DNA of 57,812 bases from Candidatus Omnitrophota bacterium (GTDB lineage: Bacteria; Omnitrophota; Gorgyraeia; 2-02-FULL-51-18): contig CAMDWQ010000002.1 in NCBI GenBank assembly GCA_945877765.1, forward strand, positions 80,464-138,275, in the 5' to 3' direction. Made by a program: the position numbers and the translations under genes. Each line of letters begins with the position of its first letter. Within the stretch, counting starts at the first letter, position 1. Shown in pieces: positions 2,141-38,697 of the stretch. The notes under the pieces are model-generated. The model was not told the origin of the DNA, ran no database searches, and was given only the letters and a program-made list of their open reading frames with translations.

Positions 2141-4484
<2,344 letters not shown>

Positions 4485-35538: not shown

Positions 35539-35960
35539 GAATTCTTGCTATTGATTTTGGAGAAAAGCGTATCGGTTTGGCGCTTTCCGACCCGCTAGGC
35601 TTTACTGCGCAGGGACTCCAGACGCTTGAGCGTCAAAACATCAAGCAAGTGATCGCCCACATTGCGGAGACAGTCAAAAATAATCAAGTAGGGGAGATTG
35701 TCATCGGTTTACCAGTGAATATGGACGGAAGTCAGGGCTTTAAGGCGCAGGAAGTTTTAAAGTTTATCCCGCAGCTTCAGATCGCTGCCGGTGTCCCTGT
35801 GAATACCTGGGATGAGCGGTTGACCAGTCGCGAAGCCAGCCGCCTGATGATCGAAGAGGGTTTGTCGCGCAAGAAGCAAAGAGCCAATAGCGACCGCCTG
35901 GCCGCCACATTGATTTTGCAAAATTATCTGGAATTTAAACGACCCAAAGGACTCTCATGA
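35535..35960 (+). CDS. ruvX: Holliday junction resolvase-like protein YqgF/RuvX
   Basis: LAIDFGEKRIGLA.SD, VIGLP.NMDG, WDERLTS, D..AA..ILQ. Confidence 0.94.
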   Translation: MRILAIDFGEKRIGLALSDPLGFTAQGLQTLERQNIKQVIAHIAETVKNNQVGEIVIGLPVNMDGSQGFKAQEVLKFIPQLQIAAGVPVNTWDERLTSREASRLMIEEGLSRKKQRANSDRLAATLILQNYLEFKRPKGLS

Positions 35961-37240
35961 GCGCGGCAAATCTTGAAATTTCGACGCTGGACAACGGGCT
36001 TAAAGTGTTGGCGGTACCACTAAAAGAAAGAAAGTCCATCTCGGTGGGTATTTGGGCTCACGTTGGTTCTCGTAATGAAAGCGTAGAGCTTGGCGGGGTA
36101 TCTCATTTCCTCGAGCATATTGTCTTTAAAGGCACTTCTTCGCGGACCGCAGCCCAAATCAAAGAATCCATTGAGGGGGTGGGCGGGAGCATGAATGCTT
36201 TCACTTCTGAAGAATGCACCTGCTTTCTGGCTAAAACGACACGACGACATTTTGAAAGCGTTTTTGCCACTCTCTCGGACATGGTGGCGGATGCGGCGTT
36301 GGACGCCAAGGATATTGAAAAAGAACGTACGGTTATACTCGAAGAGATTAAGATGACGCAGGACCAGCCTTCACAGCTAACCGAAGAAATTCTATCGGAG
36401 ATTGTCTGGCCGGGGCATGTCTTGGGGCGGCCGATAGCAGGCACCCATGATACGGTTAGCGCCCTGACACGCGAAAACATCAGAGCTTACCGTGATGATT
36501 ACTACACTCCGCGTCACCTGACGATCACCGCCGCCGGCGATATAGATCAAAAAACTCTTGTGCAGGAAGCGGCGAAACATTTTTTTAAGAATAAAACTGA
36601 AAAGGAAAAACACAGCACTCTGTTTAAGCCTGATCAACGCAAGCCCGCGCTCAAATTTTTTTCAAAAAATACAGAGCAGACGCATCTTGCGCTTTCTTTG
36701 CACGCGCCCGGCAAGGACCATCCGGATGAATACGCCGCCGATCTTCTGAATGTGATTCTTGGCGGAAATATGTCTTCGCGGCTTTTTAACGAAGTGCGAG
36801 AGGAGCGCGGCTTGGCTTACGACATCGGTTCTTTCATGCGCCGCCACCAAGAAACAGGGGCGTTTGTGGTATCTGCCGGTGTGGACCATAAAAAGGCTAA
36901 GGACGCCTTGGCGGTCATCCTGACCGAGCTTGAGCGCATGACAGATGAAATTGTTAAGTTAGACGAATTGGGGCGTGCCAAAGAGTTTTATTTGGGGCAA
37001 TTTGAGTTGGGCCTTGAAAACAGTATGAGCCAGATGCTTTGGAACGGAGAAAATCTAATGACGCTTGGGGCTCTGAAAGACCCAGAAGAGATCGTTAAAA
37101 ATATTCGCAAGGTAAGCGCCGAAGACCTTCTGCGCGTGGCTGGCAACCTGTTCAAAACCTCGTCTCTTAATCTGGCGATGGTGGGGCCCTCCCTTTCCGA
37201 GAAAGATTACGCAGCCATTCTTTCATTTTCTAAGCGGTAG
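35957..37240 (+). CDS. M16 family zinc peptidase (pitrilysin/MPP-like)
   Basis: GVSHFLEHIVFKGT (HxxEH), NAFTS, ILGGNMSSRLFNEVREERGLAY. Confidence 0.93.
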   Translation: MSAANLEISTLDNGLKVLAVPLKERKSISVGIWAHVGSRNESVELGGVSHFLEHIVFKGTSSRTAAQIKESIEGVGGSMNAFTSEECTCFLAKTTRRHFESVFATLSDMVADAALDAKDIEKERTVILEEIKMTQDQPSQLTEEILSEIVWPGHVLGRPIAGTHDTVSALTRENIRAYRDDYYTPRHLTITAAGDIDQKTLVQEAAKHFFKNKTEKEKHSTLFKPDQRKPALKFFSKNTEQTHLALSLHAPGKDHPDEYAADLLNVILGGNMSSRLFNEVREERGLAYDIGSFMRRHQETGAFVVSAGVDHKKAKDALAVILTELERMTDEIVKLDELGRAKEFYLGQFELGLENSMSQMLWNGENLMTLGALKDPEEIVKNIRKVSAEDLLRVAGNLFKTSSLNLAMVGPSLSEKDYAAILSFSKR

Positions 37241-37330
37241 AAAATGAAAAAATGAAAAACCGTGCACAACAAACCTTTAAAATGTTTGACAGGCCATAGG
37301 TGGGTCGTGCATGTTCGCATTAGATTTGTT

Positions 37331-37363
37331 CCCCATCTGACTTGCCGCAAGGTCTCGGTGGGG
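37331..37363 (+). promoter_or_regulatory. Hairpin in the 5' leader of the NYN gene
   Basis: CCCCATC/GGTGGGG stem enclosing GAC/GTC and a GCAA loop; weak TTGACA-N18-CATGTT promoter at 37286..37315. Confidence 0.4.
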
Positions 37364-37394
37364 TTATTCGTTTAAAGCCTGCTGAGCAAAAAAT

Positions 37395-37913
37395 ATGAAG
37401 CCAAGCCGAAATAATTTTGCATTTATCGATAGCCAGAATCTCAATCTATCCATTTTGGATCAGGGATGGAGACTTGATTTTAAGAGATTCCGGGTATATC
37501 TGGAAGATAAGTATGGCATCGTAAAAGCATTTTTGTTTATTGGGTATGTTCCTACCCAACAGAGCCTATATACTGCTTTGCAGGAATATGGTTATCTACT
37601 AGTCTTTAAACCAACTTTGACATTATCCGAGGGACGAGTGAAAGGGAATGTCGACGCCGAACTCGTGCTCCACGCTATGATTGAGTACGCTAACTACGAT
37701 CAAGCAGTTATTGTCACAGGTGACGGCGACTTTCACTGTCTGGTGGACTATCTGAAGAAACAGAAAAAATTGATCCGACTCTTAATCCCTAATCGGTATA
37801 AATACTCAGCTCTCTTTCGAGGGCTAGCGTCGGATATGGCTTTTATTAGCGACTGGCGGGATAAATTGGAGTACAAAAAAAGAGAGGCATCGCCGCGGGA
37901 CGGAACCCTTTGA
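37395..37913 (+). CDS. NYN-domain (LabA/DUF88, PIN-like) ribonuclease
   Basis: Acidic motifs intact: FIDSQNL, KGNVDAEL, VTGDGDF. Confidence 0.9.
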   Translation: MKPSRNNFAFIDSQNLNLSILDQGWRLDFKRFRVYLEDKYGIVKAFLFIGYVPTQQSLYTALQEYGYLLVFKPTLTLSEGRVKGNVDAELVLHAMIEYANYDQAVIVTGDGDFHCLVDYLKKQKKLIRLLIPNRYKYSALFRGLASDMAFISDWRDKLEYKKREASPRDGTL

Positions 37914-37933
37914 CTAGCCTCTTATCGTGATCT
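37875..37933 (-). ncRNA. Predicted ~60-nt antisense small RNA overlapping the NYN 3' end
   Basis: Minus strand AGATCACGATAAGAGGCTAGTCAAAGGGTTCCGTCCCGCGGCGATGCCTCTCTTTTTTT: AGAGGC/GCCTCT stem plus U7 tail, downstream of a near-consensus promoter. Confidence 0.55.
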
Positions 37934-37939
37934 AATTGG

Positions 37940-37969
37940 AGTATACACGATAAAATGTGGGGCTGTCAA
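37940..37969 (-). promoter_or_regulatory. Antisense sigma70 promoter facing into the NYN gene
   Basis: Minus strand TTGACA-N18-TATACT. Confidence 0.65.
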
Positions 37970-38017
37970 ACGCTGCTTTTTTAAAGTCTTTTTTTCTGTC
38001 TATAGGCACTTTCTATT

Positions 38018-38026
38018 TGATATACT
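38018..38026 (+). promoter_or_regulatory. Extended -10 promoter for rpe
   Basis: TG-A-TATACT. Confidence 0.45.
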
Positions 38027-38049
38027 AACGGTCTTGAAAACGGGAATAT

Positions 38050-38697
38050 ATGGCATACACTTTAAAGATAGCACCCTCTGTTCTAGCGGCTGATTTTTCA
38101 GAGCTGGCAGTTGAAATTCGTCGCGTGGAAGAGGCGGGCTGCGATTTGCTCCACCTAGACGTCATGGACGGGCATTTTGTGCCCAACATCACCATTGGTC
38201 CGTTTATTGTCAAAGCGATTCGTAGGATTACAAAGCTTCCTCTGGATACGCATCTAATGATAGAAAATCCCGAGCGCTATGTATCTGAATTTGCAAAAGC
38301 AGGATCCGATCATATTACGATTCATGCGGAGGCGTGCCCGGGAAATTTGGCAGAAGTTCTTGAGCAGATTCGTGCTCTTAAAGTAGGCTGCGGTGTTTCA
38401 TTGAAACCGGCAACGCCTCTGGATGCCATTCAACCTTTTTTGGACCGGATTGACATGGTGCTTTTGATGACCGTCAACCCTGGGTTTGGCGGACAATCTT
38501 TCATGAGGGAAGTTCTCCCCAAAGTACAGGCTTTGAGAAAAATTTATAAGCGCGATATTGAGGTGGACGGCGGCATTAATAAAGACACCTCTAAAGAAGC
38601 GGTGGCTGCTGGGGCCAACGTCTTGGTGGCAGGGACGGCTATTTTTGGGAAACAGGATGTCCGCAAAGCGATTGAGGAGTTGAGATGTCAAATGTAA
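38050..38697 (+). CDS. rpe: Ribulose-phosphate 3-epimerase
   Basis: IAPSVLAADF, LHLDVMDGHFVPNIT, DTHLMI, MTVNPGFGGQ, EVDGGI. Confidence 0.97.
   Translation: MAYTLKIAPSVLAADFSELAVEIRRVEEAGCDLLHLDVMDGHFVPNITIGPFIVKAIRRITKLPLDTHLMIENPERYVSEFAKAGSDHITIHAEACPGNLAEVLEQIRALKVGCGVSLKPATPLDAIQPFLDRIDMVLLMTVNPGFGGQSFMREVLPKVQALRKIYKRDIEVDGGINKDTSKEAVAAGANVLVAGTAIFGKQDVRKAIEELRCQM

Follow-up and report, generated by a model that had tools for sequence, protein, structure and literature searches.

A candidate mobile toxin–antitoxin-like module pairing an NYN-domain nuclease gene with a convergent structured RNA gene in Omnitrophota and other bacteria

We analysed a 57,812-nucleotide (nt) stretch of a genome assembled for a Candidatus Omnitrophota bacterium (GCA_945877765.1, contig CAMDWQ010000002.1, positions 80,464 to 138,275; hereafter the window), in which a gene for an NYN-domain nuclease is met at its 3′ end by a small RNA gene on the opposite strand. 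Comparison of homologous loci shows the predicted RNA gene to consist of a near-consensus sigma-70 promoter, the 5′ tail AUCACGAU, a hairpin of three helices (P1 to P3), and a terminator that abuts or overlaps the NYN stop codon. It further shows that the NYN gene and the RNA gene travel jointly between phyla and insert into unrelated genomic contexts. On balance, we read the pair as a mobile toxin–antitoxin-like module, in which a structured RNA of about 57 nt, transcribed from the strand opposite the nuclease gene, would act as the antitoxin; we hold this reading with slightly more belief than doubt. The underlying observation is real and lies far beyond chance, as confirmed by the comparative data only and not by the window alone.

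A structured RNA gene at the 3′ end of the NYN gene

The RNA gene is best seen in the way homologous loci vary. In an ungapped alignment of 134 distinct RNAs (A2), the three-helix structure is 97.2% paired, with compensatory changes in 8 of its 12 pairs; in two model-fitted alignments that lean towards structure (A3 and A6), 95% and 93% of cells are paired, and compensatory changes affect 11 of 12 pairs in each, in 128 and 179 cells, respectively. None of 500 shuffles reaches the covariation observed in A2, A3, or A6. The strand can be read from the same data: an A-C mismatch on one strand is a G-U pair on the other, and G-U pairs outnumber A-C mismatches on the minus strand by 70 to 13, so that the RNA reads antisense to NYN. 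Primary sequence is also tightly held, above all in the 5′ tail AUCACGAU, of which six of eight positions are invariant among the 134 sequences and the other two at least 90% conserved. The flanking signals are equally regular. Across 121 loci, at least 10 of 12 matches to the sigma-70 consensus are found in 79% of the promoters (2% of shuffles), the −10 hexamer ends 6–9 nt from AUCACGAU, and at least six T occur in the 8 nt after P1 in 107 loci. The original prediction for this locus, made from the window by itself, had set conservation of the hairpin in homologues as the test against a mere terminator; the hairpin proves both conserved and covarying in all three alignments.

The contrast between RNA and protein is plainest among close relatives. 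Between the window and its closest relatives (88–92% protein identity), the separate regions are identical to the following extent:

NYN codon positions 1 and 2: 92.7%
NYN codon position 3: 60.4%
RNA gene: 100% (472/472)
Third codon positions inside the overlap of NYN and RNA genes: 100% (104/104)
Small RNA promoter spacer: 42%
Small RNA promoter −10 and −35 hexamers: 82%

These values indicate that nucleotide-level selection is stronger on the RNA gene than on the NYN coding sequence. In the window, the elements of the pair are arranged as follows:

37395 to 37913 (+): NYN-domain nuclease gene, an open reading frame (ORF) of 172 amino acids with a Pfam NYN match
37875 to 37933 (−): small RNA gene of about 57–59 nt, located by a covariance-model match, its ends inferred from promoter spacing and the U-run
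37875 to 37913: overlap of the small RNA gene with the last 12 NYN codons (KKREASPRDGTL) and the TGA stop (37911 to 37913)
37964 to 37969 (−): −35 hexamer TTGACA of the small RNA promoter, its position conserved across loci with a variable spacer
37940 to 37945 (−): −10 hexamer TATACT of the same promoter, with an 18-nt spacer to the −35 hexamer
37924 to 37931 (−): unpaired 5′ tail AUCACGAU, the most conserved part of the RNA
37917 to 37923 (−): 5′ strand of helix P1, AAGAGGC, pairing with 37882–37888; all seven pairs show compensatory changes in A3 and A6
37882 to 37888 (−): 3′ strand of helix P1, GCCUCUC, which doubles as the terminator stem
37893 to 37913 (−): inner part of the RNA, with helices P2 and P3, both covarying
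37912–37913 with 37893–37894 (−): helix P2
37906–37908 with 37897–37899 (−): helix P3, whose outer pair alternates between G-C and A-U
37900–37905 (−): loop UUCCGU closing P3
37875 to 37881 (−): U7 run, the intrinsic terminator tail of the small RNA

The window RNA has the sequence AUCACGAUAAGAGGCUAGUCAAAGGGUUCCGUCCCGCGGCGAUGCCUCUC followed by U7 and is predicted to fold into an outer helix and two inner helices, with its 5′ end near 37933–37931 and its 3′ end within the U-run. The covariance model matches the window at 37870–37933 on the minus strand (73 bits, E = 8e-15, model E-values being rough), its sole match in the 57.8 kb. All sequence statements of the original prediction for this locus stand: a catalytically intact NYN gene lying between housekeeping genes (by the Pfam match, the acidic residues, and the flanking genes described below); a minus-strand promoter TTGACA-N18-TATACT at 37969–37940, which has 11 of 12 consensus matches; an RNA at 37933–37875 predicted to pair AGAGGC with GCCUCU and an inner GGG with CCC before ending in U7; and, by coordinates, the overlap of that RNA with the last 12 NYN codons and the stop. 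The NYN promoter implied by a TTGACA at 37286 found no support and is rejected, being without an acceptable −10 hexamer. Close relatives carry an NYN promoter, TTGACC-N17-TAGAAT, about 55 nt upstream of the ATG, a site not kept in the window.

Taken singly, the window sequence would not have revealed the RNA gene. Its fold of −17.6 kcal/mol is unremarkable against shuffles (−15.0 ± 2.7, z = −0.96), and the two promoter-like sites in the region are not above chance (2.8 in shuffles). As the hairpin is inseparable from shuffles by single-sequence folding, folding energy is not used here as evidence.

The nuclease itself looks active from its sequence and modelled fold. The window protein matches Pfam NYN (PF01936) with E = 6.2e-15 and 56.4 bits (cut-off 24.2), and contains the acidic residues D12, D87, E89, D110, and D112, which are invariant in 13 homologues and in 42 homologues (alignments A1 and A5). 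Its AlphaFold2 model has a mean predicted local distance difference test (pLDDT) score of 88, and the top Foldseek matches of that model are Protein Data Bank (PDB) entries 2QIP (E = 3.5e-8, template modelling score 0.70; 22% identity in the fold alignment) and 5YAA, the NYN domain of MARF1. The basic C-terminal tail of the window protein, proposed in the original prediction to be a by-product of constraint on the RNA, is indeed most readily explained as such, the ORF running on into the RNA gene, since residues 164–172 are disordered in the model (pLDDT <50), the tail is missing from most homologues (the best 120 among those listed are 68–92% identical and mostly 161–165 residues long), and its codons are invariant even at third positions.

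A variant of the RNA occurs in Patescibacteria, as in AUCACCAACGGAAAAG...CUUUUCUUUUUU, with P1 changed from GAGAGG/CCUCUC to GAAAAG/CUUUUC. In these genomes the NYN reading frame runs into the RNA gene before it stops, and translation of the complement of P1 and the U-run gives the protein a C-terminus of KKEK type.

Recurrence, mobility, and loss of the nuclease

A protein search recovered at least 7,993 matching homologues among 8,000 scored candidates, and the NYN subfamily is present in at least 595 species-level genomes. Among the early homologue loci, which were collected by protein similarity, the DNA just past the stop codon is nearly identical to the window in 13 of 15, with a TATA-type and then a TTGACA-type hexamer on the opposite strand beyond the conserved DNA; the DNA upstream of NYN is unrelated to the window in these early loci. 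In 80 homologue loci collected by NYN protein alone, a covariance model (R1) placed the RNA beside the 3′ end of NYN and never on the NYN strand. A second model with divergent members included (R2), its E-values likewise rough, found it in 79 of these 80 genome loci, in the same position and orientation, as well as in both close viral loci; next to three distant NYN genes (L216–L218), an R2 search found no RNA. The locus among the 80 with no detected RNA is L210. In L210 and in L181 (NYN match from 2501), early in-frame stops fall at about 2533 and 2572, respectively; these NYN genes may be pseudogenes, or their Patescibacteria hosts may read UGA as sense.

The pair is also found when the search begins from the RNA. 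An exact degenerate DNA pattern of the RNA, which is biased towards intact RNAs, recovered at least 119 further loci from more than 10 phyla among species-representative genomes. The record labels include Patescibacteria, Omnitrophota, Planctomycetota, Dehalococcoidia, Nitrospirota, and Elusimicrobiota, as well as Gammaproteobacteria, Clostridia, Fibrobacterota, and Ignavibacteria. An orphan RNA copy without a recognisable bacterial promoter lies on a contig labelled Micrarchaeota (archaea; L025:1233–1296), and could be a binning error or a transferred relic.

RNA genes found by this pattern are not always accompanied by a nuclease. Among the 107 with enough flanking sequence, 63 adjoin an intact NYN gene, about five a near-full one, and about nine a frameshifted or truncated one, and 29 have no NYN gene at all. 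About 35% thus stand without an intact NYN, often with leftover C-terminal codons still visible; the set of orphan RNAs is biased because it was chosen by sequence pattern. Loss of NYN with retention of the RNA is the pattern expected if one partner is harmful alone, and so fits a toxin–antitoxin pair without proving one.

In the window, the pair lies between two housekeeping genes:

35957–37240 (+): M16 peptidase gene, the upstream flank of the module
37241 to 37990 (right edge approximate): lineage-specific insertion of about 750 bp comprising the whole module, delimited by comparison of RuvX–M16–rpe synteny
37909 to 37983 (+): inverted repeat (37909–37971), then CGCTGC and T6, including the −35 box of the small RNA promoter
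38050–38697 (+): ribulose-phosphate 3-epimerase gene (rpe), the downstream flank of the module

The order RuvX–M16–rpe is conserved in related Omnitrophota-like genomes, with NYN in none of the 30 loci examined. In the closest relatives, M16 and rpe are separated by a 70-nt spacer whose sequence matches window 37993–38049, which identifies approximately 37241–37990 as an insertion of about 750 bp. Many related Omnitrophota-like genomes (L240, L241, L242–L244, L246, L247, and L249–L251) have in the M16–rpe gap a gene for a membrane protein of about 235 residues with an HExxH motif, which by its sequence looks like an M50 site-2 protease. The closest NYN homologues (92% and 88% identity) lie in different contexts, one of them downstream of a DDE transposase gene. 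No neighbouring ORF family recurs in more than three of the 60 loci with enough flanking sequence; the module is thus self-contained, as the original prediction had supposed, and a conserved protein antitoxin or third gene is rejected for these 60 loci.

Some copies of the module lie among toxin–antitoxin or defence genes, including HEPN_AbiU2, MNT nucleotidyltransferases, an SNase-domain protein, and a ParE-like toxin. A phage or plasmid origin is rejected, given only two close NYN homologues among 2.9 million viral contigs, none found in cultured phages, and none in sequenced plasmids, where the NYN genes present are of about 33% identity. A tRNA or transfer-messenger RNA (tmRNA) gene is found within 2.5 kb in 13 of 60 loci, at most a mild enrichment, and tRNA-linked integration is likewise rejected. 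Individual loci do adjoin such genes: the module of L152 has a tmRNA gene (3123–3468) about 70 nt away, and tRNA genes lie within about 300 nt in L153 (3293–3368), L161 (3209–3281), L183 (3211–3283), and L189 (67–141). In L015, a module of about 620 bp sits between 35-nt duplicates of the 5′ half of tRNA-Arg(ACG), at 2967–3001 and 3621–3655, with an intact tRNA-Arg(ACG) on the right side; this suggests insertion into or beside a tRNA gene. Second copies of the RNA occur in L088 (7060–7123 and 7394–7457; 334 nt apart, with identical promoters), L029 (6958–7021 and 7225–7288; 267 nt apart), and L193 (1284–1352 and 1401–1466; about 115 nt apart).

The right end of the insertion in the window also carries a plus-strand inverted repeat (37909–37971), formed by complementarity between the spacer of the RNA promoter and the initial ~21 nt of the RNA gene, and followed by a T-run. 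This repeat, with its T-run, may be a terminator of the NYN transcript; the segment 37909–37983 has a fold energy of −23.4 kcal/mol (z = −2.6 against shuffles). Two close relatives retain part of it and two others lack it; such partial conservation marks it as idiosyncratic.

Weighing the possible roles of the RNA

If the pair is a toxin–antitoxin-like module, the RNA would be made constitutively and would keep NYN harmless. The main route would probably be direct binding of the RNA to the NYN protein, as an inhibitor or pseudo-substrate, in the manner of type III systems; pairing with the 3′ end of the NYN mRNA, in the manner of type I systems, would provide a second route. Were the supply of RNA to stop, whether by loss of the module or by phage shut-off of transcription, NYN would be freed to cleave RNA, with growth arrest, addiction, or abortive infection as the outcome. 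Both routes can be related to the comparative data. No intrinsic terminator in the NYN sense is found inside the RNA gene in any of 115 loci, and only two of the 115 have one in the promoter region; because no such terminator lies inside the RNA gene, the NYN transcript should contain the complement of the RNA. Antisense pairing alone, however, cannot explain why unpaired nucleotides should be invariant when, in most homologues, they are not part of the ORF, and direct RNA–NYN binding is therefore favoured. Such binding and inhibition would be read solely from the conservation of these unpaired nucleotides.

Contigs from two freshwater metatranscriptomes match parts of the NYN coding sequence (window 37432–37857) at 99–100% identity, and no contigs in these metatranscriptomes derive from the neighbouring M16 and rpe genes of this organism; this hints that NYN is expressed, with DNA carry-over possible.

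Several points weigh against the toxin–antitoxin reading. Inhibition of NYN by the RNA, toxicity of NYN, and anti-phage action are all inferred. The NYN protein is 55–92% identical across phyla, which is unusually conserved for a toxin, and PADLOC returns no convincing score, the best being a weak match to a larger LabA-like NYN model (E = 7.7e-6). RNA genes without NYN keep the promoter, helices, and U-run as well as the rest, and such intact orphans also allow an independent or trans-acting role for the RNA. Contigs with RNA-gene words from other RNA-labelled runs are undirected and reach into the promoter or flanks; they neither support nor refute the RNA. Finally, the phylum assignments are taken from record titles of metagenome-assembled genomes, in which binning errors are possible.

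A different partnership would make the RNA a cofactor of NYN, in a ribonucleoprotein where it guides, scaffolds, or activates the nuclease on a specific cellular or phage RNA. We regard this as an unlikely reading. The extreme conservation of the unpaired nucleotides, above all the 5′ tail AUCACGAU, the high conservation of the NYN protein across phyla, and the intactness of orphan RNA genes would all be natural for a cofactor. There is also a possible target: in comparisons with a provisional 16S rRNA sequence, the predicted duplex between the RNA and the 16S 3′ end reaches −37 kcal/mol, versus −25.5 in shuffles (p about 0.01). In the window, 37897–37923 on the minus strand can form this extended imperfect duplex with 16S helix 45 and the anti-Shine-Dalgarno region, the loop sequence UUYY of the RNA complementing GGAA in the loop of helix 45. 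The sequence similarity of the RNA to the 16S 3′ end is, however, not significant (p about 0.27), and the most conserved part of the RNA, its 5′ tail, lies outside the predicted duplex; the duplex energy is only suggestive, a speculative lead. Moreover, a fixed, invariant RNA offers no programmable targeting, and no enriched or specific complementary site is apparent: the 22 sites in the window that match the 5′ tail with at most two mismatches (11 expected) include none that is specific, and pairing with the NYN translation start is rejected, with a mean of −21.6 versus −19.4 kcal/mol in shuffles and scattered positions. A cofactor role would also leave the frequent loss of NYN with retention of the RNA unexplained.

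Somewhat less probable again is plain cis-antisense tuning, in which the RNA would adjust a non-toxic accessory RNase through transcriptional interference or RNase III, with no part in addiction or defence. The two genes do converge, and the lack of an NYN-sense terminator before the RNA gene would allow such tuning. But pairing alone does not constrain primary sequence, and yet identity is 100% in the RNA as against 60% at synonymous sites; the RNA also keeps a covarying fold, and a patchy, mobile distribution with frequent NYN loss is typical of selfish modules.

The boldest alternative is a dedicated ribonucleoprotein: a minimal RNA-dependent NYN nuclease that, directed or gated by its invariant RNA, would cleave a target conserved universally. 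A possible target would be the 16S rRNA 3′ end, through complementarity of the P3 loop UUYY to the GGAA loop of helix 45. We consider it improbable. If true, it would represent a new class of RNA–protein effector that has spread horizontally among ultra-small and symbiotic bacteria.

Two further alternatives seem to us very unlikely. With roles reversed, the RNA would be harmful or regulatory and NYN would degrade or process it; systems with an RNase as antitoxin are known, NYN proteins are endoribonucleases, and the RNA promoter is strong, but the roughly one-third of RNA genes that stand without an intact NYN still have good promoters and would then be harmful, which argues against RNA toxicity. 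Equally doubtful is the absence of any RNA gene, the hairpin being a DNA-level site (an integron attC or the end of a mobile element) or an ordinary terminator beside a chance promoter: the position at one end of a mobile unit, the possibility of a hairpin on both strands, and the tandem copies in L088 and L029 would suit such a site, but −35 and −10 hexamers are conserved at a fixed distance with a variable spacer, the U-run is on one strand only, the excess of G-U over A-C (70 to 13) favours one transcribed strand, neither an integrase nor cassette arrays are seen, no neighbouring gene family recurs, and the window has a single copy. Reading of the RNA-gene sequence found no attC core sites (RYYYAAC/GTTRRRY), and the contexts are unrelated; since rpe is read from the plus strand, the element cannot be a terminator for that downstream gene.

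Relation to known systems and significance

The toxin–antitoxin reading would place the pair between established classes. In type I systems with a convergent, 3′-overlapping layout, such as bsrG/SR4 and txpA/RatA of Bacillus subtilis and fst/RNAII of Enterococcus, the toxins are small hydrophobic membrane peptides. Like those systems, the module is small and mobile and carries, on the opposite strand and under its own promoter, a gene for a small RNA that would be complementary to the 3′ end of the toxin transcript; in contrast to them, the candidate toxin is an enzyme of 160–172 amino acids with a soluble enzyme fold, not a small hydrophobic peptide. To our knowledge, the antitoxin RNAs of type I systems show no sequence conservation between phyla. 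The RNA described here is, by contrast, nearly invariant, and this indicates a partner other than its own complement.

Type III systems (ToxIN, CptIN, and TenpIN) offer the other comparison. In these, a structured RNA holds an endoribonuclease inactive, and abortive infection ensues when transcription stops; their RNA is encoded upstream of the toxin gene as an array of tandem repeats, shares its strand and operon, and is processed by the toxin. Direct inhibition of an endoribonuclease by a structured RNA, as proposed here, would be the same. The arrangement is different: the RNA is single-copy, downstream, and convergent, with its own promoter and neither a repeat array nor a shared operon, and the nuclease has an NYN rather than a ToxN/AbiQ fold.

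Other systems share single features with the pair. SymE/SymR and RalR/RalA are precedents for a nuclease toxin under antisense or small RNA control, but their folds differ from NYN; SymR overlaps its target at the 5′ end, RalA works in trans together with Hfq, and neither involves an NYN protein. In VapBC and other PIN-domain type II systems, the toxin is a metal-dependent RNase of the PIN-like kind; VapC is kept in check by a protein antitoxin whose gene lies upstream. The present module likewise has a PIN-like RNase in a compact mobile unit that clusters with toxin–antitoxin genes (here in L223 and L226); unlike VapBC, it has no conserved neighbouring protein. NYN proteins of the LabA/DUF88 type (PDB 2QIP, VPA0982) and the MARF1 NYN domain (5YAA) have the same fold and the same acidic active-site residues, and we know of, and found, no RNA gene associated with them.

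The RNA element in the window region has no match in Rfam 15 at E up to 10, nor do the RNAs of the main type or Patescibacteria variant in five other loci at E up to 1. We found no published description of an NYN gene paired with an antisense RNA in a literature coverage that was incomplete, so that prior publication is possible. To this extent, the suggestion that no RNA antitoxin has been described for a standalone NYN protein is borne out.

If the toxin–antitoxin reading is true, an NYN nuclease would join the short list of RNA-controlled toxins, in a layout that combines the convergent antisense gene of type I systems with a type III-like conserved, structured, and probably protein-binding RNA. 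The module would be a candidate for abortive-infection defence, and, at about 700 bp, a compact and easily synthesised system for RNA-mediated control of a PIN-like nuclease. The RNA would add a new structured family to the databases. Carriers of the module are found chiefly in lineages without genetics: Patescibacteria (the candidate phyla radiation), Omnitrophota, Dehalococcoidia, Planctomycetota, and others. The pair also illustrates how annotation can miss conserved antisense RNA genes placed at gene 3′ ends; at these loci, public gene calls and names are confined to the NYN protein.

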